Positions 7,233-64,000 of a DNA stretch of 64,000 nucleotides are shown one piece after another. Source of the stretch: an uncultured Gammaproteobacteria bacterium (GTDB lineage Bacteria; Patescibacteriota; Patescibacteriia; UBA9570; XYC2-FULL-38-9); the NCBI GenBank assembly GCA_964344485.1, contig CAYFNF010000003.1, positions 148,467 through 212,466 of the forward strand, written 5' to 3'. Under the pieces are notes generated by a model, which saw only the letters and a list, made by a program, of their open reading frames with translations, was not told where the DNA came from and searched no databases. The stretch's first letter is position 1. Each line of letters begins with the position of its first letter. The position numbers were made by a program, and so were the translations under genes.

Positions 7233-7327
7233 CTCTCTGCAACACAAAGAGAACATGGTCTAGTATGAGCCACACATCATACTTTTTTTCTTTCTTCTAA
7301 ACTGCGCCTACGAATAATAAAACGGTA

Positions 7328-8551: not shown

Positions 8552-8612
8552 ATGTATTCTTTATTGATTAAGTGTATAGTATAACAGAAAGCAATGCTTA
8601 AAAAAAGCTGCG

Positions 8613-13114: not shown

Positions 13115-13133
13115 ATCAGTACATAGACACTAC

Positions 13134-13160
13134 CAGAAAAACCGCTGTATTGACAAGCGG
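13134..13160 (-). terminator. Intrinsic terminator after the 13197-13892 gene
   Basis: CCGCT-TGTCAATAC-AGCGG followed by TTTTT on the minus strand. Confidence 0.45.
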
Positions 13161-37601: not shown

Positions 37602-40544
37602 TTACCAATCACACGTGGACAACGTTGCGGTTGCCTGTAAATTACCCGACGAATCAATATAGATACAGTGTAATTGACTGTCTTGCCCGTATATATACAA
37701 CCCTCTGCTCACATGAGTAGCATCATGCCCGAATCCTGATCCAGTTGCTCGTCTCGTCAACTCTCCGCCAATATGCATGGTCCACATATACGTAGCATCA
37801 AATACTATGCCCCCTGGAATCTGGCCAGGAATCATACCAATGCCTTTAGCGGTTTCTTTCGAAATATCAAATATTGCCGTACCGTACCCTCCGGCTCCGC
37901 CACCACCTGCAAAAATAATCCAGATGTTAGCTCCATCAAACGCGACATCTACTGGCTTAGTTAGTCCTGTTGATGCGAGACTAAAGGTTCGGAAGTTGTT
38001 GGTCTTAGTATGCAGTTGAATTAATTCATTATTTGCTGCACTAGCAATCCAGAGATACTGTCCGTCATACGCCATCCGTTCTAACGACCCAGCTTCAAAC
38101 CCTGATATGACTGTATCCACTGCCATGGTGTCAATATTAATCTTAATCACCTGACCATTCGGTTTATCAATAGCCCAAATAAAACCATTAGCAAAGATCA
38201 TATCGATAATACGACCAAACCCACCTGCGACCACTTGAAAATTACTACCACCCCAATTCACATACCCAATCTGGCCCGCAACATTCCCTGCCCATATGCG
38301 AGCGTATTGATCATGTGTGGAACTCACTGGCTGCCCAAGTCCAGAAATAGTCGTCGTTGTTGCCGTATCATCTCGTAGTTGCACTTTTTTAATCTGATTG
38401 CTTGAACACAATATATAGATAGTTTCATCACGCAGCACCATGGTACGACAAGTGATCTCAGTAAAGTCATAATCCAATACTTTTCTCTTATCCACTGCGT
38501 TGTATCGATAGAGCCAGTCACCGGTAAGCACCCATACATCAGATCCATCAAACAACATGTCATCTACATTATTAGAAGTTCCTAGGCTCGTATTTCCTGC
38601 ATCCACATATGCATTCTGGTAGATACCGTCCCCGGAGTTTTCATTTGGATAGAACTGCCCGCCGATGAACTCTGCCTCACCTATAACCATGCCGGTATTT
38701 GCATGTAGTGCTAAGCCGAATTCATCCACTTTAATAATGACTCCTGATCCTTTATTCGACATATCCACCTGTATACCAGTTGCTGTCTCACCGCCTGCTT
38801 CGACACGTATACCGTATTTATCCGTTGTTGATGTTGTTGTATGAGTGTTTTGCGCGAGAAGTGCTGTAGAATTAGACCCATCAGACGTAAACCACCCACC
38901 GTATCCAGCAGTAGCAAACGTGGATGTGCCTACGACTCCGGCCCCTCCGCTTCCTGTCGAGGATCCAAATACCGCGTGTTCATTCACACTGATAGCATGA
39001 ACTGCTGTGTTATCAGTGGAATAGCCGAACACACCATGCTCGGTGTCACCGGTACCGATTACTGCTGATCCGTCAGCCACAATTGCCGTGACTGTTGCTG
39101 GGTCGATGTTATGAACGGTTGAAACTATACCGTAGCCTGGGCTTGAAGTGCTCACTGCTGTATTCTTCACTGTCAACACAATATCATTCTGCAACTGATC
39201 TTCCATATAGACCTTTGCAGTAAAATTTCCTGAGTAGGTTGGCCCACCAAGATACGCACAATTCGATGTCTGGTTACACATCACACCTCCATAATACGTC
39301 GTAGCATCCGCGGAGTTTGCGTATAACCCGTAATTTAACTCACTATGTGCAACAACTCCCATGTCTGAATTACCAGCACCATATACTCCTGCCCCACCTG
39401 CGGTGGATTCAGCATACCCAACCACACCGTAGGTTGAATCACTTAGTCCGAGCACTCCTTCACTTCCAGAGGTCGGGAACGACGCAGCTGGTACAGGTAC
39501 TGAACCCGAAACTGACCCTGAATCTGAACGTAATCCAATACCTCCAGCGGTATTACTGACCAGCACTGAAGCGTCTGGACTAGTTACGGCACTAGAAAAA
39601 GTTCCTGCAGGTCCTGTTCCTGTACTTGATGCTACTCCAGTTGCACCGGTTGTTCCTTTGACATTTACTCCTGTATGCGCTCCATCAACAAACACCTCTA
39701 ATGCATCAGCGACAGTAATAGGCGCAGCGCCGTCACCAATAGCCGCGGGGCCTTGAATAAATGCTGCATGGCTGGGATTTCCTAAGTCTGTATAATGGCC
39801 AGATGTCGTATTTTCTGCGTGCACTGCTACACCAGTATCAGAAGTAGTATACACTCCATCCGCGCCGCTCGTACCAACCGCGTATATACCTTTATAAGAG
39901 CCGTCGACATACACGGATAGACCGTCTGCAGTAGTAATCGGTGTGCTCCCTGAACCTATAGCTCCAGGGCCGCTTAAGTACGCAGCATGCGCAGGTGTAC
40001 TGAGATCGATAGAATATGATGATGTGGTGTTATTTGCAAAGATTGCTGGCGCTGAACCAGAAGCAGTAATTACCGACATGCCTGGACCGGCTCCGTCTTG
40101 TTGAATCTGAACTCCATTCACCCATGAATTCGTCACCACAGCAATGGCATTAGTTCCAGAGTCTTGGTGGTCGATATTTAACGACTCTCCTGAGGTGGTT
40201 ATAATTGCTATCTCCCCGTTGCCTGTACCAATAGATGGATCAATAAATAGATCTACTGCGGTTGCAGCTTGCTGTACAGCCAAGGTATTTTCCAACACCG
40301 TAGTTCCAACCACTGTTAATGAATCACCGAGTGTGAGTGGGCCTGCTTTGGTTTGCGCTGCAGTAGAGAGGTTAATTGGTGCTGAAACATTGCAAGATGC
40401 GTGTGTTGGCCCGTCTACATCAGGGTCACATGTAGGCTGATTCCAGGCTGCACGCGCATAAGGCGCAACAAGAAACATACAGAGAGAAATAACAAAAAAA
40501 CCAGTGAAATACTGCGAAAATCGTGTTATAAACTCTGTTTTCAT
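37602..40544 (-). CDS. Large secreted protein (~980 aa): tail-fibre-like N-terminus, G/S/T/A-rich repeats and a C-terminal beta-propeller-like repeat region
   Basis: Signal/anchor FFVISLCMFLVAPYARA followed by AWNQPTCDP...APINLSTAAQTKAGPLTLG. The centre has repeated blocks (...SGHYTDLGNPSHAAFIQGPAAIGDGAAPITVADALEVFVDG... and a near-copy). The C-terminus has DG..(L/I/V)W(I/V) propeller-type repeats. The start is set at M17 because the first 16 codons overlap the divergent promoter of the 40605 gene. Confidence 0.75.
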   Translation of the reverse strand: MKTEFITRFSQYFTGFFVISLCMFLVAPYARAAWNQPTCDPDVDGPTHASCNVSAPINLSTAAQTKAGPLTLGDSLTVVGTTVLENTLAVQQAATAVDLFIDPSIGTGNGEIAIITTSGESLNIDHQDSGTNAIAVVTNSWVNGVQIQQDGAGPGMSVITASGSAPAIFANNTTSSYSIDLSTPAHAAYLSGPGAIGSGSTPITTADGLSVYVDGSYKGIYAVGTSGADGVYTTSDTGVAVHAENTTSGHYTDLGNPSHAAFIQGPAAIGDGAAPITVADALEVFVDGAHTGVNVKGTTGATGVASSTGTGPAGTFSSAVTSPDASVLVSNTAGGIGLRSDSGSVSGSVPVPAASFPTSGSEGVLGLSDSTYGVVGYAESTAGGAGVYGAGNSDMGVVAHSELNYGLYANSADATTYYGGVMCNQTSNCAYLGGPTYSGNFTAKVYMEDQLQNDIVLTVKNTAVSTSSPGYGIVSTVHNIDPATVTAIVADGSAVIGTGDTEHGVFGYSTDNTAVHAISVNEHAVFGSSTGSGGAGVVGTSTFATAGYGGWFTSDGSNSTALLAQNTHTTTSTTDKYGIRVEAGGETATGIQVDMSNKGSGVIIKVDEFGLALHANTGMVIGEAEFIGGQFYPNENSGDGIYQNAYVDAGNTSLGTSNNVDDMLFDGSDVWVLTGDWLYRYNAVDKRKVLDYDFTEITCRTMVLRDETIYILCSSNQIKKVQLRDDTATTTTISGLGQPVSSTHDQYARIWAGNVAGQIGYVNWGGSNFQVVAGGFGRIIDMIFANGFIWAIDKPNGQVIKINIDTMAVDTVISGFEAGSLERMAYDGQYLWIASAANNELIQLHTKTNNFRTFSLASTGLTKPVDVAFDGANIWIIFAGGGGAGGYGTAIFDISKETAKGIGMIPGQIPGGIVFDATYMWTMHIGGELTRRATGSGFGHDATHVSRGLYIYGQDSQLHCIYIDSSGNLQATATLSTCDW

Positions 40545-40549
40545 TTCGT

Positions 40550-40578
40550 TGACGGTTAGGCCATTTTTAGTATATAAT
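40550..40578 (+). promoter_or_regulatory. Candidate promoter TTGACG-(17/18)-TATAAT for the 40605 gene
   Basis: TTGACG at 40550-40555 and TATAAT at 40573-40578, about 26 nt upstream of the ATG. Confidence 0.35.
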
Positions 40579-40604
40579 ATCAACACATTCATCGCAATAG
40601 CACT

Positions 40605-41113: not shown

Positions 41114-41677
41114 ATGATTATTTTCGGAATTATCGCCGCTGTAGTGGTAGTCATCGGCCTCTGGCTGATTCTCACATACAACGGCTTAATCCGATCACGC
41201 AATCAAGTTGATGAAGCGTGGTCAGATATTGACGTTCAATTAAAACGTCGGTATGACCTTATCCCAAACTTAATCGAAACCTGTAAGGGATATGCAAAAC
41301 ATGAGAACGAAACGTTCCAACAGGTAACAGAAGCTCGAGCTAATGCAATTAAAGCTGAACAAGCTGGCGACACCAAGAAACTCGGGGAAGCAGAGAACAT
41401 GCTGACCGGCGCATTGAAGAGCCTGTTTGCTGTTGCTGAGAACTACCCAGAATTGAAAGCAAATGAAAACTTTCTTCAATTGCAGGATGAACTCTCAGAC
41501 ACCGAGAACAAGATCCAGGCATCACGTCGTTTCTACAACGGAAATGTTCGAGACTTCAACACCAAGGTTCAAGTGTTCCCAACCAACTTAATTGCCGGAA
41601 TGCTCGGATTCAAGGACTATGAATTCTTCGAGATTGGAGAAGAGGAAGAACGAGAAAATCCACAAGTAAAATTCTAG
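41114..41677 (+). CDS. lemA: LemA family protein
   Basis: N-terminal TM segment followed by YNGLIRSRNQVDEAWSDIDVQLKRRYDLIPNL...ENYPELKANENFLQLQDEL...RRFYN. Confidence 0.9.
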   Translation: MIIFGIIAAVVVVIGLWLILTYNGLIRSRNQVDEAWSDIDVQLKRRYDLIPNLIETCKGYAKHENETFQQVTEARANAIKAEQAGDTKKLGEAENMLTGALKSLFAVAENYPELKANENFLQLQDELSDTENKIQASRRFYNGNVRDFNTKVQVFPTNLIAGMLGFKDYEFFEIGEEEERENPQVKF

Positions 41678-41726
41678 CAGCCTTTTGCGCGCAACAACGC
41701 GTGTTTGAGCTACCCTTCATACCTCT

Positions 41727-42662
41727 ATGACGGTCTATCAACAGATTTCTAAAAATAAGAGGCGCACTATTGTATTGATGATGATCTTTATTGCGTTCAT
41801 TCTTGGTTTAGGGTATGTGCTTGCTGAGTACTACGCCGGTGTTGGTTATATTGGTTTAGTGTACGCTGCAATCCTCTCGTTAGTCATGACAACGGTAAGT
41901 TACTTCGGTGGAGACAAAGCTGCGTTGCTAACATCAGGCGCAAAGGAGATCGCAAAAGATGATAACCCATACGTCTGGCGCATGGTAGAGAACCTCTGCA
42001 TCACTTCAGGCTTGCCTATGCCACGAGTTTATATCATCAATGATCCAGTGATGAATGCATTTGCTACAGGCCGAAAACCAGAGAAGTCTTCTATTGCACT
42101 AACAACCGGGCTAATTGAAAACCTCGAGAATGAAGAGCTAGAAGGAGTCATCGCACACGAACTCTCTCATATACAGAACTACGACACTCGATTAATGATG
42201 GTAGTGGTAGTGTTGGTTGGAGTGTTAGCGTTAATGGCAGACTGGATGTGGCGGTTCCATTTCTTCAGTGGTAACCGACGAGGTGGAGGACGTCGCGGTG
42301 GCGGTGGATTCCAGATTGAACTGATCTTTGCGATTGTCGGTGTGGCATTAATCATCCTCTCCCCAGTCATTGCCGAGCTGATTAAACTCGCGATATCGAG
42401 AAAGCGTGAGTACTTAGCAGATGCGTCTGCAGTGTTGATGACTCGATACTCTGAAGGATTAGCAGGGGCATTAGAAAAGATCGCTAAGCAAGACGGAAAA
42501 ATGCTGCGCGCGAACCATGCAACCGCACATCTGTATATCGCTAATCCATTTGGAGCAAAAGCAAAGAAATGGCTCACTCGTCTCTGGTCCACGCATCCGC
42601 CAATAGAAGATCGTATCGCAAAATTGCGAGATATGGGCGGATCTCCGCAAATTGAGGTATAA
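41727..42662 (+). CDS. htpX: M48 family zinc metalloprotease HtpX
   Basis: NAFATG..., HELSHIQNYD and four TM segments. There is a G/R-rich insert (GNRRGGGRRGGGG). It follows lemA, a common pairing. Confidence 0.9.
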   Translation: MTVYQQISKNKRRTIVLMMIFIAFILGLGYVLAEYYAGVGYIGLVYAAILSLVMTTVSYFGGDKAALLTSGAKEIAKDDNPYVWRMVENLCITSGLPMPRVYIINDPVMNAFATGRKPEKSSIALTTGLIENLENEELEGVIAHELSHIQNYDTRLMMVVVVLVGVLALMADWMWRFHFFSGNRRGGGRRGGGGFQIELIFAIVGVALIILSPVIAELIKLAISRKREYLADASAVLMTRYSEGLAGALEKIAKQDGKMLRANHATAHLYIANPFGAKAKKWLTRLWSTHPPIEDRIAKLRDMGGSPQIEV

Positions 42663-42692
42663 TAGAAATACAAATATATAACCCATATATCT

Positions 42693-43487
42693 ATGGCAAA
42701 AACAAATGTTCATCAACAGGTCATTGCAATAAGCAAAAGCTATCACGATAGCATAGAAATCTACACAAAACACTTCTTAAAACTCATGGGAGTAGTGCTG
42801 ATTCCTAACCTATTAACGTATTTTCTGATTATTTCATTGAAGGCTTCTGTGGTCTCCTCTATTGCAAAACTTGGAGCGCTCGAGTTCTTTTCGTTCACAA
42901 ATATTAACTTTATTGTTTCGCTACTATTAATTCTCACCATTGTTATTGTGCAAGCACTGGGTGTAATTGCTTTAACGTATATGGTGGTACATCGAGAACG
43001 AGTCGCGGTGTTGACCGCGTTTGAACACTCCCTAGAGTTCTTCTGGAGATTTATCGGTCTGGCAATAGTCCTCATGGTTATCACTGGAATTGGTTTACTG
43101 CTGGGGTTCCTATTAGTAATCCTTATTGGCAGTCCGCTAGCAAGCTATTCACTCACTGCACTGGAATATACCTTTGACTGGCTGATGTTGATACCAGTAA
43201 TAATCAGCGCAATCATTACCACCTTCTTTGTCTTTGCTAGTTATAGCATTGTTGATAAGAATCAGAGCATTACTAAAGGTCTGCAACACAGCTTTACATT
43301 AGTGCGAGGACACTTTATCCCTGTTGCCATTCGCGTACTGCTGATCTATATCATCACCTCACTACTGTTCTTCGGAATTCAGTTTATTCCTCATATCGGA
43401 AACATTGTTTCTGTTATCCTGGTTGCTCCGTTCTCAGTGGTCTACCTCTACATTCTCTATAACGACTTAGTAAAATTTAAATCCTAA
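42693..43487 (+). CDS. Polytopic membrane protein, function unknown
   Basis: 264 aa with about 6 TM segments and no diagnostic motif. Confidence 0.55.
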   Translation: MAKTNVHQQVIAISKSYHDSIEIYTKHFLKLMGVVLIPNLLTYFLIISLKASVVSSIAKLGALEFFSFTNINFIVSLLLILTIVIVQALGVIALTYMVVHRERVAVLTAFEHSLEFFWRFIGLAIVLMVITGIGLLLGFLLVILIGSPLASYSLTALEYTFDWLMLIPVIISAIITTFFVFASYSIVDKNQSITKGLQHSFTLVRGHFIPVAIRVLLIYIITSLLFFGIQFIPHIGNIVSVILVAPFSVVYLYILYNDLVKFKS

Positions 43488-43496
43488 CCTGTTTCT

Positions 43497-46076
43497 TTGT
43501 TCATGCAACTTGACCTACTCGACAAATTCACTTCTCATCTTCGCGGCGCACTTTCTCGGTCCATTGACCTTGCATGGCAATTACAACAAGAATCCATACC
43601 TCCGCTGTTTTTACTTATCTCAATAGCAGAACAACAAGGGAGTATTGGTTCTGACCTGCTCAAACGATATAACATATCCATGAAGACACTAGCAGAGTAT
43701 CTCTCTGAGCACGGTGAACAGTTCGCGCCGACTGTTTTACAGGAGCTCACAAAGTCAAAAAAACCATTTGTATTCCTGTGGCCAGAGTTTTCTTCTAAGA
43801 CAAAGGATTTAATTGAGCACGCAGCACTGACAGCGTACGATTATGAACATCAACATATTGGAACAGAGCATCTGCTGTTTGCGGTGTTGGACCAACAGGA
43901 TGAGGATGTTCAGCAGGTTCTTGCTCAGTCCAAAACCTCCTCGCAGAAGATCATTGGGGATTTAAAGAAAATACTGGAACAGAACACAGCAGCTGCACAA
44001 GTAGAAGCCGCGTTCACTAAAGCAGATAAAGCAGACCCAGACGACCAAATTGGTGTTGCTACTGCAGAGCTTTCCGCAGAAGAGGTGTCTGAGACTCCAG
44101 CGCTTGATTACTTTGGTATTGATCTTACTAGTACTGCGCAACAGGAGCAGCTTGATCCAGTGATTGGACGTGAAGATGAGATTGAGCGTGTTATACATAT
44201 CCTCTCTCGGCGCACTAAGAATAATCCAGTGTTAATCGGTGAACCAGGTGTTGGGAAAACAGCTATTGCAGAAGGCTTAGCCAAGCATATTGTAGACGGG
44301 AAAGTACCGGACATTCTACTTCACAAACGAATCATCTGCTTGGATTTAAGCTTGGTCCTCGCAGGCACTATGTATCGCGGTGAATTCGAATCGCGGTTAA
44401 AACAAGTAATTGAAGAGCTCAAAAGCCACCCTGATATTATTCTGTTTATTGATGAAATACACATGATTGTTGGAGCCGGAGGAGTGCAAGGTGGAAATAT
44501 GGATGCAGCAAATATCTTAAAGCCAGCGTTAGCAAAAGGGCTGATCCGTTGTATTGGAGCGACCACATCAGATGAATACCGCAAGCATATTGAAAACGAC
44601 CCTGCGCTTGAACGCAGGTTCCAACCTGTAGTGGTAGAAGAACCAACCATGGAGCAAACAGTAGATATCCTAAAAGGACTACGCAGCTACTATGAAACCT
44701 ATCACCACATTCGCATTCCAGATGCAGTGATTGAATCTGCAGTACAGTGGTCTACACGATATCAGCCGGATAAACACCAGCCGGATAAAACTATTGATTT
44801 AATTGATGAAGCTGGAGCAAAAGTGCACTCCAAACGCTCGGTTCCTGAATCTATGCGTGAACTGGACCGCTGCACACGCTTACTCTCCTCTCTGCGAAAA
44901 AAGAAAGAACTCGCTGCACAAGCAGAACGATTCTCTCTTGCGGTTGATATAAAGAAGCAAGAAGGAGTAATCGTGAAAAAGATGAAAGAGCTGCAAAAAC
45001 AGGTCCGTGCGTTAAAGATCCCTGCTACAGCGCTAACTGCAGATGATATTGCACAAGTACTCTCCTCAGCTACGAGCATCCCAGTTGACCACATTCGTGC
45101 GACCGGCAAGGAACGGTACGCAACGTTGGAGACAGAGATGAAGAAGTGCATCTTTGGGCAGGATGAAGCTATTGAGAAGGTCTGCTCGGTGATTAAGCGT
45201 TCGTACGCTGGACTTGCTTCTCCAAATCGTCCGTTAGGCAGCTTCATGCTGCTTGGGCCATCAGGCGTCGGAAAGACTGAATTAGCAAAAGTACTCGCAG
45301 AGAAGAATTTTGGACACCGAGATAACGTGATCCGCGTGGATATGTCTGAATTCTCTGAGAGTTTTACTGTGTCAAAGTTGATTGGTGCTCCAGCGGGATA
45401 TGTAGGGTATAACGACGGTGTGAAAATCTCCGACCATATTCGCCGCCGCCCGTACTCTGTAGTACTCTTTGATGAAATTGAGAAAGCACACCCGGATATA
45501 TTTAATATCTTGTTACAAGTTCTGGATGAAGGACGACTTACGGACTCTTCTGGACGTGAGCTTAACTTCCGCAATGCAATTGTGATCTTTACTTCGAATA
45601 TTGGAATCGATCTACTGAACCGACAAGCTGCAATTGGGTTTTCTACCGAAGAAGAGCAACCGGAAGAGTACCTCTCTCAAGAAGAGATTGAAGCGACGAT
45701 CACCCAAGAGCTGCAGCAACAGTATCCGCAGGAGTTCTTGAATCGCATCGATCATATTATGGTCTTCAGCTCCTTAACGCAAAAGAGCATGGAGAAAATT
45801 GTACAAGCACAATTCAAAGAGATTCAAGTGCGGTGCAAAGAAAAAGGTATATCGCTTCGACTTCTTCCGACTGCTAAACGCCACCTTGCAACTCAGAGCT
45901 ATGATCCGCAACAAGGAGCACGGTTGGTACGAAAAACACTCTCAGACTTGATCGAAGACCCATTAGCTGATAAGCTATTAACCAAGAAGTTCCGACCTGG
46001 AAATACTGTAGCAGTCAAGTTGAAAAAAGATGCGATTGTACTAGAACAGCAGAAGGACACCAAGAAAAAGAAGTAG
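43497..46076 (+). CDS. clpC: AAA+ Clp ATPase, ClpC type
   Basis: Clp N-domain repeats. D1 has Walker [10 protein letters not shown], and D2 has GPSGVGKTE and sensor motifs. The middle domain is short (~55 aa). The IGF tripeptide (AAIGFS) is typical of ClpP-docking Clp ATPases. The start may be the ATG at 43503. Confidence 0.85.
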
Positions 46077-46119
46077 TGCGGTCAGAACAGCAATAGAGCT
46101 CTTTCCTAAAGAATCATCA

Positions 46120-46144
46120 CCACCCATAACGGGTGGTTTTATTT
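46120..46144 (+). terminator. Intrinsic terminator after clpC
   Basis: CCACCC-ATAAC-GGGTGG followed by TTTTATTT. Confidence 0.6.
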
Positions 46145-46822
46145 ATGAACATCTTCAAACAACTCTCAAGTAGTATTCTCGACGCACTCTTTCCTCGCCG
46201 CTGCGTTGGGTGTGGTTGTTATGATACGTGGGCATGTGCTTCTTGCGTTCAGGAGCACCGTAATGTGGAATGCTTAGATCTACTCACAGCAGACGCTCAG
46301 AGTGCTGCAACATCTATTATCACTATTGGTCTATATAGTAATCCGTTCTGGAGAGAGTTAGTGCAGTTGTTAAAGTTTCATAACGTTCGATCACTCAGTG
46401 AAGCGTTGACACAAGAGCTAGCAGCGACGCTATGGCACTATATGCAACAACAAACACACCCACAGCAACCGACTGTGCTCGTGCCGATTCCGTTACATAA
46501 GAGACGTCTGCGAGAACGTGGATTCAATCAAGCGACGGTGGTTGCGGAGCGACTCTCTGATCATACGGACTGGCCAGTTCTCGAGCAGTTGCTGTTGAGA
46601 ACTCACTACACTCCATCTCAGACCACTCTCTCTCACGAGGAGCGCGAACAAAACATTGCACACGCATTTTCGTACACCTCCGCTGAACTATCGCTGCACG
46701 GTGTTCATGTCATTTTGGTAGATGATGTTGTGACTACCGGCTCCACCGCGTTGGAAGCAGCACAAACACTGCAGGAGCTTGAACCTGCTTCTGTACATAT
46801 CGTTGCTATTGCTCGAGGGTAA
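46145..46822 (+). CDS. comF: ComF family protein (phosphoribosyltransferase domain)
   Basis: The N-terminus has a 4-Cys motif (CVGCG....CASC) and the C-terminus has the PRTase motif VILVDDVVTTGST. The ATG at 46145 is preferred over the GTG at 46133, which lies inside the clpC terminator. Confidence 0.8.
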   Translation: MNIFKQLSSSILDALFPRRCVGCGCYDTWACASCVQEHRNVECLDLLTADAQSAATSIITIGLYSNPFWRELVQLLKFHNVRSLSEALTQELAATLWHYMQQQTHPQQPTVLVPIPLHKRRLRERGFNQATVVAERLSDHTDWPVLEQLLLRTHYTPSQTTLSHEEREQNIAHAFSYTSAELSLHGVHVILVDDVVTTGSTALEAAQTLQELEPASVHIVAIARG

Positions 46823-51209: not shown

Positions 51210-52427
51210 ATGGTTGATCGAATCACCAAGGTCACGCGCACTGGGTACGGATCGCGTGTGGGCCAGTCTATTGGCGGCGTTCTTATTGGACTGCTGCTAT
51301 TTGTCGCGTCGTTCGTTGTGCTCTACTGGAACGAAGGCCGGCAAGACATGTCTCTGATTGCAGCAACTGCAACTGAGATTGAAGCAGAGACAGCAAACCA
51401 AGACGCTTCATTGGATGGAACGCTCGTTTCTCTCACCGGAACACTTTCCACCGATGAAACACTTGGCGATGACTTTCTTGTTGCTGGCGACTATATCGCT
51501 GTCAAACGAACTGTCGAGATGTATGCATGGGAAGAGTCCACGTCCAGCGAAACGCACACAGAGACTGGTGGTTCTGAGACAACCGAAACTACATACGAGT
51601 ACGACACAGTATGGACAGAGACACCTGCTGACTCAGATGACTTTGAGTACTCAGGGAGTTACTATAATCCAACTAAGGAGATTGAAAGCGTCACAAAAAC
51701 TGTTACTGACGCAAAAGTAGGTGTATATGCTGTAGATGCAGACGATGCAGAACTGCCAGGTTTTGATGAGGTATCACTTTCAGAAGACAACACGTATATC
51801 CTAGATACAGCTGCTGACCTCTATTGGGAAGATCCGCTATACGACACCTATTATGAATACGGGGATCAAGCACTATCTAGTTCATACATCTACATTGGAT
51901 ACGGCACATTAGATAACCCAACGGTCGGAGACTATCGTATCAGCTACTCCGTGCTACCAGCTGGTGAAGATGTGACGGCATTCGGAGAACTAGATGGAAC
52001 AAAAGTAGCAAGCTACACAGATGAAGACGGTAACACCTTATATCGCTTGTTTGACGGCTCTCGTGAAGAAGCAATTGCAACACTACACACCGAACATGTG
52101 ACTTCTACATGGATCTTACGTGTAGTTGGATTCTTCATGATGTGGATTGGACTCGCAGCTGTGTTTGGGCCAGTAAGCACGGTACTCTCCTTTATTCCAT
52201 TCCTTGGCAAGCTCAGCAAGAGTTTAATCGGGGTAGTAGCATTTGTCGTAGCGCTTGTACTGTCAGTGCTTACCATTGTTATCTCCATGATCCTACACAG
52301 CGTTGTCGCACTGATTATTATCGGTATTCTCGTACTTGCTGGAGTCGTGCTCATTGTTATGGGATATAAGAAAAAGAAAGGTGAAACTCCACCTGCATCC
52401 CCTCCATCTCCGGAGCCTACTCAATAA
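51210..52427 (+). CDS. TMEM43/DUF1625 family membrane protein
   Basis: The N-terminus reads ..SRVGQSIGGVLIGLLLFVASFVVLYWNEGR (the WNEGR signature after TM1). A large acidic loop is followed by three C-terminal TM segments. Confidence 0.6.
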   Translation: MVDRITKVTRTGYGSRVGQSIGGVLIGLLLFVASFVVLYWNEGRQDMSLIAATATEIEAETANQDASLDGTLVSLTGTLSTDETLGDDFLVAGDYIAVKRTVEMYAWEESTSSETHTETGGSETTETTYEYDTVWTETPADSDDFEYSGSYYNPTKEIESVTKTVTDAKVGVYAVDADDAELPGFDEVSLSEDNTYILDTAADLYWEDPLYDTYYEYGDQALSSSYIYIGYGTLDNPTVGDYRISYSVLPAGEDVTAFGELDGTKVASYTDEDGNTLYRLFDGSREEAIATLHTEHVTSTWILRVVGFFMMWIGLAAVFGPVSTVLSFIPFLGKLSKSLIGVVAFVVALVLSVLTIVISMILHSVVALIIIGILVLAGVVLIVMGYKKKKGETPPASPPSPEPTQ

Positions 52428-57028: not shown

Positions 57029-59071
57029 ATGTCTGCATCCACACCACTATCACAGTTACACGGAGTCGGGCCTTCAATAATGAAGCGTTTGAAAGTTCTT
57101 GGCATTACCACCACACATGATTTAATGTGGCACTTTCCACGTCAGTATGAGGACCGTTCACTCATGACTGATATTATTGACGTAGAACCGGATAGCAAAG
57201 TGACTATCCACGGCACGATTGAAAAAATACAGTCACGTCAGTCGTGGAAACGTCGTATCAACCTCACTGAAGCAACTGTTACTGATACTACAGGATCTAT
57301 AAAAGCGATCTGGTTTAACCAGCCGTACGTAGCAAACACACTAAAAAAGGGGGATACAGTACAGCTCTCTGGTCAAGTAAAGAAAACCAAGTACGGAACG
57401 TCTCTGCAGAGCCCGGTCTATGAGAAAGTATTTGAAGAAAAAGATACGACGCATACTGGGCGCATTGTTCCAAAGTACTCCCTGACAAAGGGTGTAACGC
57501 AAAAGCAACTTCGGTATTTTATGAAGCAGGCGCTGGAAATAGAACTCCCGGTTGAGGATTACGTCCCTGAAGAGATACTACAGGAGTACGAATTATTTCC
57601 TTTAGCTGATGCACTGCAACATATTCACTTCCCCACTTCTGAGCAGGACTTTCTTCAAGCAAAACAACGATGTGACTTCGACTCACTCTATATCATTCAG
57701 CTCTATGCGCAGCTCCTGCGTCAAGAGTTGCAATCTCAGCAAGCCTCCAGTATCGAGTTCCAGGAACGTGCGATAAAACACTTTGTTGACGAGCTCCCGT
57801 TTACGTTAACCAATGCACAAAAGAAAGCATCATGGGCCATTCTACAGGATGTAGAGAAACAGACCCCGATGAACCGGCTGCTTATTGGAGATGTTGGATC
57901 AGGAAAAACCATAGTGGCAGCGATCGCGATGTTGAATGCAGTTTTAAATGGCGCGCAAGCTGCGCTCATGGCGCCAACAGAGATTCTAGCAAAACAGCAC
58001 TATCAGACACTACAAGAAGTATTTGACACAAAGAACATCACGATTGAATTGCTCACTGGTTCTACAAAAAACGGACCAAAGCAACAACAGCTTGAAGGGT
58101 GTGCGTCTGATATCGTTGTCGGTACACACGCGTTAATTCAAGAGAGCGTCACGTTTAACAATTTAGGTCTAGCTATAGTGGATGAGCAACATCGGTTTGG
58201 GGTAGAACAACGAAAAGCGCTGAAATACCAGTCTGGGGATGAAAAAACTGCGCCGCATCTGCTGTCCATGACCGCCACCCCGATTCCACGAACATTAGCG
58301 CTAGCATTATACGGAGACTTAGACCTCTCTATTATTGATGAACTACCGACAGGTAGAAAGCCAGTCACTACGAATCTTGTTCCCCCAAACAAGCGAGAGG
58401 ATGCATATGGATTTATCCGGGAACACCTCGACCGCGGAGAGCAGTGTTTTGTGGTCTGCCCTCTGATTGATCCTTCGGATACGCTGGAAGTCAAAGCTGT
58501 CACCACAGAGTATGAACACTTGTGCAACGAAGTGTTTCCTGAGTACCAGTTAGAGATTCTACACGGAAAGATTCAGCCACAGGAGAAAGATGATATCATG
58601 CAACGCATGCGTAATAAGGAGATCGACATCTTGGTCTCCACATCTGTTATTGAAGTTGGAGTAGATATTCCGAATGCGACAATTATCGTAATTGAAGGTG
58701 CGGACAGATTTGGATTAGCACAACTACATCAATTCCGTGGTCGAGTCGGTCGTTCTGATACACAGTCATACTGCTTGCTCTTCTCCGAATCAGATAATGA
58801 ACAGACTATTAAACGGCTACAGGTACTGACGAACACCTATGATGGATTCAAGCTTGCAGAACAAGACTTACAGCTGCGTGGAGCTGGAGAGTTCTTTGGT
58901 AAAAATCAGACCGGGTTCTCCCCATTAGCAATGCTTGCGTACCAGCAGCCACAATTACTAAACAGTGCTCGCTCAGCAGCAAAACAAACACTAGCGAAGG
59001 ATTATATCTCTTCCACGCCATTGCTAAAAAAGAAAATCACTGAATTTACAAAAAGCATCCACTTAGAGTGA
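57029..59071 (+). CDS. recG: ATP-dependent DNA helicase RecG
   Basis: Wedge/OB N-terminus, GDVGSGKT, DEQHRFG, MTATPIPRT and QLHQFRGRVGR. A TATAAT box at 57017-57022 lies 6 nt upstream of the ATG. Confidence 0.95.
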   Translation: MSASTPLSQLHGVGPSIMKRLKVLGITTTHDLMWHFPRQYEDRSLMTDIIDVEPDSKVTIHGTIEKIQSRQSWKRRINLTEATVTDTTGSIKAIWFNQPYVANTLKKGDTVQLSGQVKKTKYGTSLQSPVYEKVFEEKDTTHTGRIVPKYSLTKGVTQKQLRYFMKQALEIELPVEDYVPEEILQEYELFPLADALQHIHFPTSEQDFLQAKQRCDFDSLYIIQLYAQLLRQELQSQQASSIEFQERAIKHFVDELPFTLTNAQKKASWAILQDVEKQTPMNRLLIGDVGSGKTIVAAIAMLNAVLNGAQAALMAPTEILAKQHYQTLQEVFDTKNITIELLTGSTKNGPKQQQLEGCASDIVVGTHALIQESVTFNNLGLAIVDEQHRFGVEQRKALKYQSGDEKTAPHLLSMTATPIPRTLALALYGDLDLSIIDELPTGRKPVTTNLVPPNKREDAYGFIREHLDRGEQCFVVCPLIDPSDTLEVKAVTTEYEHLCNEVFPEYQLEILHGKIQPQEKDDIMQRMRNKEIDILVSTSVIEVGVDIPNATIIVIEGADRFGLAQLHQFRGRVGRSDTQSYCLLFSESDNEQTIKRLQVLTNTYDGFKLAEQDLQLRGAGEFFGKNQTGFSPLAMLAYQQPQLLNSARSAAKQTLAKDYISSTPLLKKKITEFTKSIHLE

Positions 59072-59094: not shown

Positions 59095-60081
59095 TTAATA
59101 TGAACAGCCGTGCCCGGTCCATTCGTAGTGCATGTAGTCTTTTACACTGCTCCAATCTCCGCCCCACATAAACCCTTCATTCTTAAACGCATTGATTAAC
59201 CAATCTGGATAGTCACAAGCGTCTGTTCCAGTAGTAGCGTTGTAGTTTGCACACATATCTGAGGAGAATTTCTCAGTGGTGTAACACGACATGGTTTTTT
59301 TACAGTTTGGATTGTTGCTCCAATTCACATCAATAGCAAAGCCGAATGAGTGATTACTGTAACACGAGGGATTGTTTACGTTTTGACGCCAGGCCCATGT
59401 TCCCGTATGACCAAATTCAATATCATATTGAGATGACGGGTGACCGTAATTATATGCAGCTATGGTTGCAAATGCATTTTCAAACGCGAGCTGTGCATCT
59501 TTATGGACTGCAAGTGTTTTTGCATGGTCGTCCACTCCATCATCAACCGTAATGCGCACTAAGTAATTTGTGTCCACGTAATCCTTATCAAATAAATTCT
59601 CATACTTTCCTGCTAGGCAGGTCTGCATACCACTTGTACAGTTGCTAGGATCACCATCTGCCATAAATGACAGTTCTGGTACGTCAATATCTCCATAGAT
59701 AGTAAATGTTGGACTGATCATATTAATGATAGTCCACGAAAGAAGTGCGATAACCAAACCGATCAGTGCATTCGTAATACGATCCTTCCCTTCGGATACT
59801 TTCTCTTTATTTCCAGCTGCTAGCGCCCATTGCGCACCACCAAAGATTATCATCCCTACTGCAACAATCGCGATACCGCTCACCAAGAACTGGTACATTG
59901 CAGCAAGATAGTTTGGCAGATACGGTTCAGTAATATTCTGCAGTACTCCAAGGCCAACTTCTAGTTTGATCACCGCCGCTGAGACTACCATAGGAAACGC
60001 TCCACAAAAAGCCATCACAGTCGTCAGTATTCTCCGCGGAGTGAAGCGAATTGATGATGTGTGTATTGTTTTTCGAGACAT
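59095..60081 (-). CDS. Pilin-like (TrbC/VirB2-type two-helix) N-terminal module fused to an M15 family peptidoglycan peptidase domain
   Basis: The N-terminus has a signal sequence followed by YLAAMYQFLVSGIAIVAVGMIIFGGAQWALAAGNKEKVSEGKDRITNALIGLVIALLSWTIINMI. The C-terminus has SNHSFGFAIDVN (S-x-H-x-x-G-x-A-x-D) and GGDWSSVKDYMHYEW (D-x-x-H), the M15 zinc peptidase motifs. Confidence 0.7.
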   Translation of the reverse strand: MSRKTIHTSSIRFTPRRILTTVMAFCGAFPMVVSAAVIKLEVGLGVLQNITEPYLPNYLAAMYQFLVSGIAIVAVGMIIFGGAQWALAAGNKEKVSEGKDRITNALIGLVIALLSWTIINMISPTFTIYGDIDVPELSFMADGDPSNCTSGMQTCLAGKYENLFDKDYVDTNYLVRITVDDGVDDHAKTLAVHKDAQLAFENAFATIAAYNYGHPSSQYDIEFGHTGTWAWRQNVNNPSCYSNHSFGFAIDVNWSNNPNCKKTMSCYTTEKFSSDMCANYNATTGTDACDYPDWLINAFKNEGFMWGGDWSSVKDYMHYEWTGHGCSY

Positions 60082-60162
60082 GTAAAATCTCTAATCAAAT
60101 AGTGTCAATACTATTGTACAAGAAAATAGCAAAAAGTCAATCTACAATCCTCCTACACTCCC

Positions 60163-60909
60163 TTATCCCTCTTGCTGAATTTTTTCGATCTCCTGCTCTA
60201 CTAACACGCGCATCTCTTCAATCGTCTTCTCTCCAGTAACAAAAGTATCATTAATGAAGTACGATGGGGCTGAGTCAATCTGCAATGTCTTTGCAATATA
60301 GTATCCTTGTACAACGAGTTGCTTTTTTGATGTACCTGAGACGCACTCAGAAAACGTTTCAGTGTCTAAACCAATATCTTCAGCAATGGAGACCCAAGGA
60401 TTCAGAATAAACTGGTCTTGATCAAAGAATAGGAGATCATGGTACGCCCAAAAAGAATCCTGGTCTTGTGCGCAGCGTGCTGCCATAGCAGCGGTCTCAG
60501 AATTTTCATGTAATCGTGGAATTGGAAAGTCCTTCCACACATGCAAAACATCATTCGGATACTCTTGAACAATCTGCTCTATAATCGGGGACATGCGTTT
60601 ACACGCTTCACATTCAAAATCACCAAATTCAACGATAGTTACTGTTGGGCTCGCTGCGCCGCGCTGCGGATCAGTTGTTAATGGTCTGGGTGTGCTATCA
60701 CTCCCGTCAATTCCAGAGGGTACTTGAGTAATCAGCGGGTCGTACGGCATGGCACTGCCGGAGACCACCTCTCCATTGGTCGCGGTCTCAGTCCCTTGAT
60801 CAATATCTGACGCAGCATGATTTGTTACTGTAGCGCTTGCAACAAATAAAATGGCGATACAAACAGCACCGAGAACAAATATAAGAACTGCGCGGTTTTT
60901 CTTTTCCAT
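60163..60909 (-). CDS. DsbA-like thiol:disulfide oxidoreductase (membrane-anchored)
   Basis: An N-terminal TM segment and a thioredoxin fold with a CxxC active site (FGDFECEACKR). Confidence 0.75.
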   Translation of the reverse strand: MEKKNRAVLIFVLGAVCIAILFVASATVTNHAASDIDQGTETATNGEVVSGSAMPYDPLITQVPSGIDGSDSTPRPLTTDPQRGAASPTVTIVEFGDFECEACKRMSPIIEQIVQEYPNDVLHVWKDFPIPRLHENSETAAMAARCAQDQDSFWAYHDLLFFDQDQFILNPWVSIAEDIGLDTETFSECVSGTSKKQLVVQGYYIAKTLQIDSAPSYFINDTFVTGEKTIEEMRVLVEQEIEKIQQEG

Positions 60910-60912
60910 ATG

Positions 60913-62151
60913 TTACTCTAATTCAATCTTAATTAAGCTGCCAGTGGTGGAGTCTTTAAAATAGAGCGTCTCTTCATCGTCGGACACGACCATATAATCG
61001 ACCGAATATGACGCTGTTCCATTTTCATCCACTGGAGTTGCTAGCTTAGTTTTAATTCCGGTGCTCAAATTAATCTTATAGATATCGTCCGCAACATCAT
61101 TCAGTAGTCGCGGTTCTAAACCGTATGCATCTACATCTTCTGCTGGGATGCCACAGTACGCGGTACCGCCATCACTACTGATCGTACATTTATCAGCAAA
61201 CGTATTAACGTTCAACTCTTTTCTATTTTTACCGATATCATCGCCATCCGAGTCCACAATCCATAGCGACGGTTTATAACCTGTACTACTGGAGTAGACG
61301 CTATAGAGTGCTTGCTTTCCGTCGGGTGTGTATTGATATTGCAGGCCCTTACCTTCAACAATGGTTCCTTTAAAGTTCTCTCCTTTTAATCCGATAAAAC
61401 CAAGTTCTTGCCTATTAAAATCAATAAACTCTGCCCAAGTAGCAGCGACTTTCCCAGTCGGAGACCACTCGACATTCACGCGATGTGCATTATTTCCAAG
61501 TGACTCTAACGTCCGTGCTGATGAGCCGTCAGGGCTGGACACTGCAAGTACTCGACGTTCTGGATCGATATGCATGTACTTGAATGCAATCTGATTTGAT
61601 GTCGGAGAGAAATCAAACTCTTCGTACTCCTTCGGTAGAGTGACTTGTGTATTTGAGTCCAGATCATAGTAGACATTAGTACCATCGGGAAATTCTAAGA
61701 TAGTTTCATTTGTTGTGTCTGCCCATGTGACTGTATCTACTGAGCTAAATCGGGCATCACTCAATGCGGTAACCTCACCGTCTGCATTTACTTTATAGAA
61801 CTTTCCGTCTTCTGCGTCATAGTAGCGCAGCGTACCATCTTTTGCTACTGACGGATCCTGTGCGTCTGTATCCGGAGTAAGAATGTCGGTTGCGGTATTT
61901 CCGCCTAACGCAACAGCGTCCACACCTGGAACAGTGGTGGTGGTATTGATGTTTGGCTCTGCGTTGTTTACATTCTCAAGTAACTCATTCACATTCGGGA
62001 GGCCGATATTAGCGTTGTTCACATTTTCATTGGTAACATCAGGCGGCGGTTGTCTAAAAAACACAATATACAGTAAATATGCAAGAGCGATCACTGTGAC
62101 CACAAAAAGTATGATCAACAGCGTTCTTTTTAATTTAGGGTTTAGTGCCAT
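60913..62151 (-). CDS. Membrane-anchored TolB-like beta-propeller protein
   Basis: An N-terminal TM segment and repeated PD40-like motifs (SSPDGSSARTL, WSPTGKVAATW, YTPDGKQALYSV, ISSDGGTAYC). Confidence 0.65.
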   Translation of the reverse strand: MALNPKLKRTLLIILFVVTVIALAYLLYIVFFRQPPPDVTNENVNNANIGLPNVNELLENVNNAEPNINTTTTVPGVDAVALGGNTATDILTPDTDAQDPSVAKDGTLRYYDAEDGKFYKVNADGEVTALSDARFSSVDTVTWADTTNETILEFPDGTNVYYDLDSNTQVTLPKEYEEFDFSPTSNQIAFKYMHIDPERRVLAVSSPDGSSARTLESLGNNAHRVNVEWSPTGKVAATWAEFIDFNRQELGFIGLKGENFKGTIVEGKGLQYQYTPDGKQALYSVYSSSTGYKPSLWIVDSDGDDIGKNRKELNVNTFADKCTISSDGGTAYCGIPAEDVDAYGLEPRLLNDVADDIYKINLSTGIKTKLATPVDENGTASYSVDYMVVSDDEETLYFKDSTTGSLIKIELE

Positions 62152-62171
62152 ATAAATACTATCTTAATAAT

Positions 62172-63317
62172 TTATACACATTTATGTTGCGAGCCGTCCC
62201 AGGTAGTACCAGGCGTACAGTCGTCACATTTATCGTCCGTACATCCTCTTCCAGGTCCTTGACACTGATAATCTGCAGTACATTCATCTCCTGGACTGCC
62301 GTCGAAACACTCATTCGCCCACTCAAATGAACAGTACATGAGCGGACTATCTCCTCCGTAACAATCTGTGTCCCCGTCGCACGAATCTCCTTCTGCTTTT
62401 GGAGTACAGGAACTGCTCACACACTTAAATCCAGAAATACAATCACTTGAGTTTACGCACGGAAGACTATCTGACCCATCACCAGTAATACAGAAATTCT
62501 CTACTGTATTACATATTCCTGACTTACAGACACTATCTGATGTACAATACGCACCTTCAGAACGATTATTCTGAGTCAAGCACTTCTTTGACGGGTCTCC
62601 TTCACAGACAAACCCGGTTTCACAGTCTGCTTCGCTCGCACAGAGCGTTCCAGAGGTAGCAGTCGTACAAACCCCAGGTGCAGACGGACTCCCGCCAGCA
62701 CACGTCATGGGTTCTATACAATTTTCATCGCGTTGACATGCTGCGCCTTCACCGTTCGTATTTGTTCCGGTTGGACGACAGACCGTTAACCCCTCACCTA
62801 CATTCACACACTCACAGCCTCCCACACAGTAACTCACGCTCGTACACGCTGATTCTGCTCCACCTGGACATTCGGTCCAGTCAGAGGTAGTACCGTCACC
62901 CGAAGCCGTAAATTCAATCCCTGTTGGACAGATATTACCGAAAATCACCATTCCATCACTAATAATGCTCATTATGGTATAAGACAGCAAAGCGAGCACC
63001 AGCCCGAGCAGTGCATTAGTAATACGTGACTTAGCTTCGTTTACTTTCTCTGAATTACCTGCAGCAAGTGCCCACTGTGCTCCACCGAACATAATCATAC
63101 CCACTGCAACAACAGCAATTGCTTGAATTAAAAACGTATACACTGCGGTAATGTACTCACCTAAGCTAATTACTTGTTCGAGAGTGCCAACTTGCACTTC
63201 TAACTTAATTGGACTGGTAATACAATCCTCTGCAAACGCAGGGAAAGCAGCGATAAACAGCCCAGTCATGACTGCGGCGAGTAATGGTATTCTTTTGTAG
63301 AGATAATGTTGTTTCAT
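62172..63317 (-). CDS. Pilin-like N-terminal module (paralog of 59095-60081) fused to an array of ~6 cysteine-knot repeats
   Basis: The N-terminus YITAVYTFLIQAIAVVAVGMIMFGGAQWALAAGNSEKVNEAKSRITNALLGLVLALLSYTIMSII is about 70% identical by eye to the other pilin-like module. The C-terminal ~210 aa hold repeated C-x5-7-C-x4-6-C-x5-9-C units (e.g. GTLCASEADCETGFVCEGDPSKKC, GAYCTSDSVCKSGICNTVENFC). Confidence 0.7.
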   Translation of the reverse strand: MKQHYLYKRIPLLAAVMTGLFIAAFPAFAEDCITSPIKLEVQVGTLEQVISLGEYITAVYTFLIQAIAVVAVGMIMFGGAQWALAAGNSEKVNEAKSRITNALLGLVLALLSYTIMSIISDGMVIFGNICPTGIEFTASGDGTTSDWTECPGGAESACTSVSYCVGGCECVNVGEGLTVCRPTGTNTNGEGAACQRDENCIEPMTCAGGSPSAPGVCTTATSGTLCASEADCETGFVCEGDPSKKCLTQNNRSEGAYCTSDSVCKSGICNTVENFCITGDGSDSLPCVNSSDCISGFKCVSSSCTPKAEGDSCDGDTDCYGGDSPLMYCSFEWANECFDGSPGDECTADYQCQGPGRGCTDDKCDDCTPGTTWDGSQHKCV

Positions 63318-63322
63318 ATGTT

Positions 63323-64000
63323 TTAAAAAATTGCACTAGCTATTTCATCAACTAAGGAGGTGACCCCTAGTTCTTGTAACGCAGACATGGCTTCTTGTAG
63401 ACGTCCCCAATTCCATGGGGTCATCAGAGCAACAGCTGCGCTAACAATGACTAGAGCGAAAATATATTGAGCAGCCATGGAGATGAATATCAGGAACTCT
63501 GTAAATAATAGTAGAACGAACAGAGCTTTTTGCGCCATGTCCGGCTCTTCAAACATCTTTGTAGATTTTAGGAACTGAGAGATAAAGCCCAGTACTGGGA
63601 TCTCTGGTAGTAGATAGTATCCGAAAAAATGTAGATGAATGTAAATTAGTGTTGATGGATCACAGCAACAGAGATCTTCGGGTAGAGCAATAAACATCTC
63701 CCATAACCACATGCGACTTCCTGGCTTTGCCATACTCGATGCATCTGCAGCAGCTCCAGCTGCATCTGCAGCGCCTCCAGCTGCATCTGCTGCACCGCCA
63801 GCGCCTTTTGCTCCTTGCTTGTCTTTTCCGAGTTGAGATGCTGCTCCAGCGCCTGCTGCAAGTCCAGCTCCAGCAACAGCGCCTGCTCCGGCTCCTACTG
63901 GTCCAGCAGCGGCTCCAGCGCCTGCTCCGGCTGCGGCAGCTCCACCAGCTCCAGCAGCGGCTCCTGCTCCAGCGCCTGCTCCGGCTGCGCCTGCACCCGC
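63323..64000 (-). CDS. Membrane protein with a Gly/Ala-rich N-terminal low-complexity region (5' end beyond the window)
   Basis: The frame of the 63323-63733 ORF stays open upstream to position 64000. It encodes AGAGAAGAGAGAGAAAGAGG...AADAAGGAADAAGAAADASS before the MAKPGSRMW... part, which contains TM segments. Confidence 0.55.
   Translation of the reverse strand, partial: AGAGAAGAGAGAGAAAGAGGAAAAGAGAGAAAGPVGAGAGAVAGAGLAAGAGAASQLGKDKQGAKGAGGAADAAGGAADAAGAAADASSMAKPGSRMWLWEMFIALPEDLCCCDPSTLIYIHLHFFGYYLLPEIPVLGFISQFLKSTKMFEEPDMAQKALFVLLLFTEFLIFISMAAQYIFALVIVSAAVALMTPWNWGRLQEAMSALQELGVTSLVDEIASAIF
63740..64000 (-). repeat. Coding low-complexity GC-rich repeat (GCx/GGx codons, Gly/Ala tract)
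   Basis: Degenerate reiteration of gctccagc/gcctgctcc/ggctgc units on the plus strand. Confidence 0.7.

Follow-up and report, generated by a model that had tools for sequence, protein, structure and literature searches.

What does a pilin-like membrane hairpin do when it is joined, in one protein, to a peptidase and, in another, to a long series of cysteine repeats? The question is raised by five genes at the end of a 64-kb chromosomal stretch (hereafter the window; contig CAYFNF010000003.1), the last position of which, 64000, falls inside the fifth gene of the group. The closest relatives carry the names Candidatus Kerfeldbacteria or Patescibacteria, and the region is chromosomal DNA of a Kerfeldbacteria-like Patescibacterium of the GTDB class ABY1. 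Two of the five genes encode the fusions; between them lie genes for a membrane-anchored beta-propeller and a DsbA-like oxidoreductase. The answer that we favor, and to which we give slightly better than even chances, is that the region is the distal end of a chromosomal type IV secretion system (T4SS) locus, in which the hairpin would dock and anchor extracytoplasmic cargo at the secretion apparatus.

One hairpin module, two cargos

Five tightly spaced open reading frames (ORFs), all on the minus strand, occupy positions 59095 to 64000. The ORF list confirmed the five co-oriented genes and the coordinates given for them in a preliminary description of this DNA. In the direction of transcription they encode a Gly/Ala-rich membrane protein (63323–64000), a 381-amino-acid (aa) pilin-like fusion with a Cys-repeat cargo (62172–63317, the upstream fusion), a 412-aa membrane-anchored beta-propeller (60913–62151), a 248-aa membrane-anchored DsbA/BdbD-like thiol-disulfide oxidoreductase (60163–60909), and a 328-aa pilin-like fusion with an M15 (LAS) peptidase cargo (59095–60081, the downstream fusion). 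The gaps between them are 5, 20, 3 and 81 bp. The frame of the Gly/Ala-rich protein, of which the C-terminal 225 codons are in view, stays open to the window end; the locus continues past it, as had been suggested. On the plus strand, recG (57029–59071) converges on the downstream fusion gene with 23 bp between the stop codons.

Both fusions matched the T4SS_pilin family of Pfam (PF18895), the 328-aa protein with 37.4 bits and the 381-aa protein with 34.0 bits against a cut-off of 26.6; no second Pfam domain was found in the latter. The two modules, at 59716–59961 and 62955–63200, are paralogous. BLASTP aligned them with 52% identity over 136 aa (E 5e-31), far beyond chance; about 102 aligned positions are 57% identical, and a 66-aa helix-loop-helix core is 71% identical, near the earlier estimate of about 70%. 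Beyond the module the proteins show no detectable similarity to each other, and the statement that they carry wholly different C-terminal cargos was correct: one bears an M15 peptidase and the other a 32-Cys repeat domain. There is no third module within the 64-kb window.

The arrangement is the same in both proteins and consists of a signal peptide, about 25 mature residues, a first transmembrane (TM) helix, a loop rich in lysine and arginine (AAGNxEKVxExKxR), a second TM helix and the cargo. In the 328-aa protein the signal peptide is followed by a VirB2-like hairpin at about 55–123 and the cargo at about 145–328; in the 381-aa protein the signal peptide spans about 1–29, the VirB2-like two-helix hairpin about 52–122 and the cargo 131–381. 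Kyte-Doolittle analysis placed hydrophobic segments at residues 22–40, 65–83 and 105–123 of one fusion and at 10–28, 62–80 and 102–120 of the other, and a structural model of the 328-aa fusion had helices at 55–87 and 92–122, with low confidence. Because of the positive-inside rule, the short, positively charged hairpin loop should face the cytoplasm, with both hairpin ends and the cargo outside the membrane.

The cargo of the downstream fusion scored 62.5 bits with Peptidase_M15_4, and its sequence matched that of an L-Ala-D-Glu peptidase, the endolysin Ply500 of a phage (2vo9, E 2.7e-5). In an alignment of homologues, the zinc-ligand positions H244, D251 and H318 were invariant. As judged from these matches, the cargo is an M15 (LAS) peptidoglycan peptidase with an intact catalytic triad. 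The cargo of the upstream fusion consists of a 6-Cys head, about six units of the form C-x5-6-C-x5-C-x4-10-C and a 2-Cys tail. The whole protein has 34 cysteines, 32 of them in the cargo, where the preliminary description had counted more than 40. The Cys-knot fold proposed there found no support, since searches of this domain returned no match at E <= 10 among PDB sequences and, in Pfam, only Dickkopf-like matches below threshold (E 0.009–0.08).

The 412-aa protein has an N-terminal TM helix (12–30), a disordered linker (40–72) and a propeller at about 85–410, which AlphaFold2 modeled with a mean pLDDT of 88.3. No Pfam family scored above its cut-off, and profile searches of PDB sequences gave no match. 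The best Foldseek hit was TolB (7mx5, E 1e-10), at a TM-score of 0.38 and with hundreds of unrelated propellers scoring similarly. The generic beta-propeller fold implied by the former label "TolB-like" was therefore retained. Membership in TolB itself was rejected because the N-terminus consists of a TM helix and a disordered linker in place of the TolA-binding domain and no TolB or PD40 profile scored above its cut-off. The 248-aa protein has an N-terminal TM helix (7–25) and a CEAC active site at residues 100–103, and it matched the Pfam families Thioredoxin_4 (79.2 bits) and DSBA (43.8 bits).

The fifth gene encodes a Gly/Ala-rich low-complexity stretch followed by a hydrophobic C-terminal region, with a TM-like segment at 159–177 of the fragment. 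Its DNA at 63740–63989 is a degenerate tandem repeat. The fragment matched no Pfam or NCBIfam family and is orthologous to a 544-aa protein of relatives (BLASTP E 1e-13 to positions 7123–8757 of the locus L003, described below).

A scan of the locus for promoters and terminators yielded counts that were not above those of shuffled controls, so operon boundaries cannot be claimed from it; this includes a promoter-like site (10/12) at 60140–60113, in the 81-bp gap upstream of the downstream fusion gene, as such sites were no more frequent than expected by chance. The database copy of the gene at 59095–60081 (P0001) begins 22 codons later and encodes 306 aa. The 328-aa start looks more plausible, as the protein then opens with a proper signal peptide whose n-region is basic (K4, R13, R16 and R17).

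Gene order and cargo in related genomes

One genome per species was scanned for relatives of the propeller, of which 156 homologues were collected. Relatives are encoded in 363 species genomes, and 80 loci were kept, mostly from genomes named Kerfeld-, Falkow-, Uhr-, Magasanik- or Komeilibacteria or "Patescibacteria group". The source genome of the window was not among them, the best match being 67% identical. The loci were mapped with hidden Markov models built from two sequences each, taken from the reference loci L003 (a 505-kb JGI contig, 60% propeller identity) and L004 (a 41-kb Logan contig, 55%), which makes calls of absence in distant relatives conservative.

In both reference loci the genes are contiguous, tightly spaced and co-oriented with virB4. 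The order begins with proteins of about 1000 aa and 663–740 aa and continues with PrgI (VirB3), a TraC/TrsD-like protein, VirB4 (DUF87/P-loop_TraG), p200 and p105. The next genes encode a protein of 544 or 610 aa, the pilin-like fusion with the Cys-rich cargo, the propeller, DsbA and a pilin-like fusion with an M15-like cargo, followed by RadA and RecG. The DsbA CxxC motif is conserved in L003 and L004. VirB4, with PrgI/VirB3 and the TrsD-like protein, was found directly upstream in all eight close relatives (at least 53% propeller identity) that had enough upstream sequence. VirB4 was also upstream in 10/10 loci in which a pilin gene immediately precedes the propeller. The upstream Cys-rich fusion occurred only where VirB4 was upstream (10/10). 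The expectation that T4SS genes would be met upstream of position 64000 was thus borne out in the relatives, the genome under study having been read up to that position.

Across the wider set, DsbA directly follows the propeller in 54/80 loci, a pilin+cargo gene lies no more than 1.5 kb downstream of the propeller in 53/71, and RadA lies downstream in 37/55; a pilin+cargo gene directly upstream of the propeller was found in 17/76. The genes are syntenic in relatives: the locus order is kept in L003 and L004, and the order propeller–DsbA–pilin+cargo is conserved in most of 83 loci. There are two layers in this arrangement. One is a widely conserved unit of propeller, DsbA and pilin+enzyme, often with RadA; the other, seen in the Kerfeldbacteria-like lineage to which the window belongs, is a T4SS operon placed directly in front of this unit and ending in the Cys-rich pilin fusion.

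The preliminary description had proposed a modular family with varied cargo, and cataloguing, which was run on the related loci and on a protein library, supported it. The related loci contained 94 module-bearing ORFs, nearly all of 250–920 aa, and 83 of the 93 that were scanned matched PF18895, while one matched PF04956 (TrbC). Nearly all 93 of these ABY1 proteins have 140–600 aa of extracytoplasmic cargo per module. The Pfam domains in the cargos were SLT (12 proteins), Peptidase_M15_4 (7), Peptidase_M15/VanY (6), GDSL lipase (3), phage lysozyme, SLT_3 and M23 (2 each), and C39-like, C70, NlpC/P60 and CHAT (1 each); the remainder were unclassified, Cys-rich cargos among them. The most frequent of these, SLT, rides on the same module as the window peptidase, which is itself neither SLT nor CHAP. 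Upstream-position cargos are Cys-rich, with 22–35 cysteines in two main clusters, and downstream cargos are enzyme-like, with about 8. Many distant members have an extra N-terminal extension of 120–360 aa ahead of the module.

The library, of 1.84 billion proteins, was searched with a profile of the two window modules and returned 26,713 cluster representatives at E <= 1e-3, of which 2,762 reached E <= 1e-10. The closest 145 (P0151–P0295) are 204–891 aa long. All 112 single-module proteins among them have a C-terminal extension (median 221 aa), and the other 33 have tandem modules, two to eight per polypeptide (e.g., P0161 of 820 aa and P0155 of 555 aa). These tandem proteins can be read as a pilin "array" fused into a single multi-hairpin polypeptide. 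Every one of the 115 close representatives scanned matched PF18895, and 11 also matched PF04956 (best E 1.6e-16). By their predicted domains, the recognizable cargos in the relatives are mainly cell-wall hydrolases, and the closest library representatives are alike in this respect.

Two M15-type cargos ride on the module in relatives, the PF13539 type found in the window and a second type with the motif SxHGxGxAxD...EWWH. The locus L004 has both (19955–20887 and 12109–13137), and L003 has an M15-type gene at 11975–13057. In the window, the slot after DsbA is filled by the PF13539 type. The cargo has therefore been swapped at a fixed position of the locus.

Orthologues of the 381-aa protein with the same cargo were found in L003, L004, L006, L007 and L011, and a word-indexed search with a profile of the Cys-rich orthologues collected 21 proteins. 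Two cysteines, Cys32 (63222–63224) and Cys130 (62928–62930), bracket the outward ends of the hairpin in 6/6 orthologues of the Cys-rich fusion, and both are missing from a divergent protein (L017). A Cys32–Cys130 disulfide could, in this one clade, staple the ends of the hairpin together, mimicking the head-to-tail cyclization of some VirB2/TrbC pilins.

Cargo cysteines are even in number in 67 of the 93 module proteins (binomial p = 1.3e-5, a value that overstates the significance because loci of related species are not independent), and their median density is 3.6%. This bias is consistent with oxidative folding of the cargos by the adjacent DsbA. The suggestion that the oxidoreductase suits the Cys-rich cargo is thus supported indirectly, by these even counts and by the position of DsbA beside the propeller in most loci, with the number of cysteines corrected as above.

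The modules vary together within genomes. The median module-core identity is 0.59 for pairs from one locus and 0.39 for pairs from different loci (95th percentile 0.53); for 41 of the 59 modules that have a same-locus paralogue, this paralogue is the nearest neighbor, and within-genome paralogues beat positional orthologues in 89/105 locus pairs. At larger distances, orthologue identity and cross identity are equal (0.41 and 0.41). The cargos, unlike the modules, are clearly orthologous by position. Recent gene conversion was considered as the cause of the similarity between the window modules and is unsupported: the fraction of identical codons at identical residues in the window pair (0.32) is at the between-genome background of 0.29–0.58. 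One module pair in L004 (0.70) does look recent. The overall pattern would be explained either by old conversion or by co-evolution, be it among the modules or with a partner common to them; the within-genome co-variation fits a shared partner or mutual contact. Such co-variation can help to predict which proteins form assemblies with one another.

Possible roles: docking, pilus or wall maintenance

The T4SSs of Patescibacteria are derived from the mating-pair-formation type FATA (MPF-FATA) and comprise VirB4, TrsD, PrgI/VirB3, VirB6 and VirB2-like pilins detected with PF18895 (Quiñonero-Coronel et al. 2025, PMC12102498). In the same study, the VirB2-like pilins lie near virB4 in arrays of 2–11, the ABY1 loci include recG, radA and comF, and VirB1 is mostly absent. 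In Southlakia epibionticum, the one species tested, both the T4SS and the pilin array that belongs to it proved essential (Wang et al. 2023, PMC10633639). The role of these systems has been described as completely unknown, and reviews have raised pili as a possibility (PMC11665869, PMC12857230). The locus in the window resembles the published type in its PF18895 modules above cut-off, in the PrgI/VirB3, TrsD-like and VirB4 neighbors of its relatives, and in its ABY1 context with recG, radA and comF; it is chromosomal, with no relaxase in view. Unlike the small, arrayed pilins described so far, its modules bear cargo and stand in a unit with DsbA and a membrane-anchored propeller. The literature searched yielded no description of fusions between pilins and enzymes, of the DsbA or of the propeller, which is not proof of absence, and no mention of them was found in PMC12102498 or PMC10633639. 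The locus type is thus already known, while the cargo-fusion design, the trio with DsbA and propeller and the concerted evolution of the modules appear undescribed.

With the canonical VirB2/TrbC/TraA pilins (PF04956), the window proteins share the signal peptide, the two hydrophobic helices, the short polar loop and, to judge from relatives, the placement in a T4SS operon, and some close relatives of the window modules match PF04956 directly. However, the canonical precursors have about 100–120 aa and no extra domains, whereas the window proteins are three to four times longer, carry cargos of 180–250 aa and do not match PF04956. The modules also resemble Mbov_0395, the pilin-like conjugal transfer protein of Mycoplasma integrative and conjugative elements (NCBIfam NF045849), which likewise belongs to a monoderm MPF-FATA-type system. 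They align over nearly the whole 80-residue profile, at E 2e-7 and, for the 381-aa protein, 1.2e-5. Nonetheless, the scores (30.6 and 24.9 bits) are under the curated 40-bit cut-off, and the profile describes the module alone, without cargo. That the modules fall next to this family fits the published MPF-FATA ancestry.

The downstream fusion can further be compared with hydrolases of the VirB1, PrgK, TraG (pIP501) and CwlT type, with which it shares the character of a membrane-tethered wall hydrolase and, to judge from synteny, the setting of a T4SS locus. The SLT, M23 and NlpC/P60 cargos of the relatives match the domain set of PrgK. Unlike the VirB1 and PrgK hydrolases, the window enzyme is of the M15/LAS class and not SLT or CHAP, and it is tethered by a VirB2-like hairpin instead of one TM helix. 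Enzymatic flagellins (flagellinolysins) and polymorphic toxins also join a constant part, for assembly or trafficking, to enzymatic cargo that varies; the machinery is unrelated, and the comparison is an analogy only.

In the mechanism that we propose, the shared hairpin would dock the cargo where the T4SS sits in the envelope and anchor it there. The M15 peptidase would cut the stem peptides of peptidoglycan and open the wall locally, as VirB1/PrgK-type hydrolases do in other T4SSs, and the 32-Cys repeat domain may be a rigid, disulfide-stabilized spacer or an adhesin. The membrane-anchored DsbA would oxidize the cysteines of both cargos, and the membrane-anchored propeller may be a scaffold. 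If this is true, the "pilins" of ABY1 T4SSs would carry wall hydrolases and further cargos that act on the envelope, and would come with a disulfide catalyst of their own, and the list of cargos would hint at the job of the machine, namely the opening of a cell wall, its own or that of a host. It would also fill a gap in the literature, as most Patescibacteria with VirB2-like pilins lack a recognizable VirB1 (PMC12102498); in ABY1, the hydrolase would be fused to the pilin-like module.

Several results weigh against this proposal. Neither window fusion matches TrbC/VirB2 (PF04956) at E <= 0.1. A profile of 84 modules found no solved pilin among PDB sequences (best E 1), and hhalign of the modules with an Agrobacterium VirB2 sequence gave a probability of 0.7%, a weak test because that sequence is unverified. 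The structural model of the fusion protein is poor, and Foldseek with this low-confidence model returned no match at E <= 0.001, only generic helical hairpins. These comparisons leave the window modules homologous to canonical VirB2/TrbC only transitively, by way of relatives that match PF04956. No DsbB or VKOR partner for the oxidoreductase was found in the subset of window ORFs scanned with Pfam. The link to a T4SS in this particular genome is supported by synteny, the window stopping before any T4SS core gene. In addition, 36 of the 52 more distant loci with at least 7 kb of sequence upstream of the propeller had no VirB4 detected there. Three loci without VirB4 that were checked with Pfam (L085, L060 and L084) have housekeeping genes upstream of the propeller block instead: an HtpX-like M48 protease in all three, ClpB in two and LemA in one. 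Since so many distant relatives lack a detected VirB4, the propeller unit is not obligatorily tied to a T4SS.

These last observations speak for a T4SS-independent role, in which propeller, DsbA and hairpin-anchored hydrolase would form a housekeeping module of ABY1 for wall remodeling or division that lies beside a T4SS operon in some lineages. Most of the loci without detected VirB4 still have the propeller followed by DsbA, by a pilin+cargo gene or by both, and the propeller family is widespread, as its occurrence in the 363 species genomes shows. The window itself contains, on the plus strand at 41114–46822, genes for LemA, an HtpX-like M48 protease, a 264-aa ORF, ClpB and a ComF-like phosphoribosyltransferase. 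That genes of this set, which stands elsewhere in the window, lie upstream of the block in L085, L060 and L084 implies a rearrangement, or the insertion of a T4SS operon, in the lineage of the window. We nevertheless hold this explanation to be unlikely. The module family is defined by its association with T4SSs, through PF18895 and the similarity to NF045849, the genes of the close relatives are contiguous and co-oriented with virB4 at tight spacing, and the Cys-rich fusion appears upstream only together with VirB4. Far less probable still, to the point that we give it little weight, is a horizontally acquired lysis cassette of a phage or mobile element, in which a holin-like two-TM segment would be fused to an endolysin. 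It is true that the best solved relatives of the M15 cargo are phage endolysins and that a wall hydrolase preceded by a two-TM segment bears a superficial resemblance to membrane-tethered endolysins. However, the GC content of the locus is the same as in the remainder of the window, there are no phage or integrase genes nearby, synteny with recG and radA is kept across dozens of species, and the same module also bears non-lytic cargos.

A more serious competitor, which we still consider clearly less probable than docking, is a pilus decorated with enzymes. Here the hairpins would polymerize into a T4SS pilus or stalk with the cargo displayed along it or at its tip, and the target, with the same tentative standing, would be the envelope of a host bacterium during epibiotic attachment or feeding, not the cell's own wall. 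The family is classed, in name and placement, with the VirB2-like pilins, some close representatives match PF04956, as noted above, and reviews have raised pili for the T4SSs of Patescibacteria (PMC12857230). In none of the 83 loci was a cargo-less pilin ORF (at least 60 aa) found within some 10 kb of the propeller, and none is present among the 145 closest representatives. The tandem modules in 33 of these, together with hairpin ends on the same side of the membrane, fit side-by-side self-association, the within-genome co-variation is as expected of subunits that assemble together, and the cargo repertoire resembles sets of antibacterial effectors. On the other hand, a globular domain of 200–300 aa on every subunit would, by our estimate, be sterically hard to fit into a VirB2-type helical filament. 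The peptidase gene is not followed by an immunity-like gene, recG converging on it 23 bp away, and the model of the module is of low confidence. A fuller version of this scenario is, in our judgment, slightly more doubtful again. It is a T4SS-dependent "enzymatic pilus" whose subunits would each bear a wall hydrolase, lipase, protease or disulfide-rich repeats and would breach the envelope of a host bacterium, with concerted evolution keeping the modules compatible and the dedicated DsbA folding the cargo.

Other genes of the window

The remainder of the window is ordinary chromosome, with dnaG, rpoD and genes for pyruvate kinase, PPDK, EF-P, SSB, S6 and ClpB, five tRNAs and several giant surface proteins. 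Among the long ORFs, the one at 23833–29202 on the minus strand (1789 aa) has right-handed beta-helix/NosD repeats, bacterial TSP3 repeats and a purple-acid-phosphatase N-domain, and it probably encodes a giant surface protein. Its neighbor at 18215–23764, also on the minus strand, encodes 1849 aa, with an M48 peptidase-like region at the N-terminus and an ABC1 atypical-kinase domain at the C-terminus, an uncommon combination for so large a protein. Two other minus-strand ORFs, at 14671–18210 (1179 aa) and 37602–40592 (996 aa), had no Pfam match at E <= 0.001. A 405-aa membrane protein encoded on the plus strand at 51210–52427 strongly matched (E 3.9e-55) the TMEM43 family, whose best-known members are nuclear-envelope proteins of eukaryotes.

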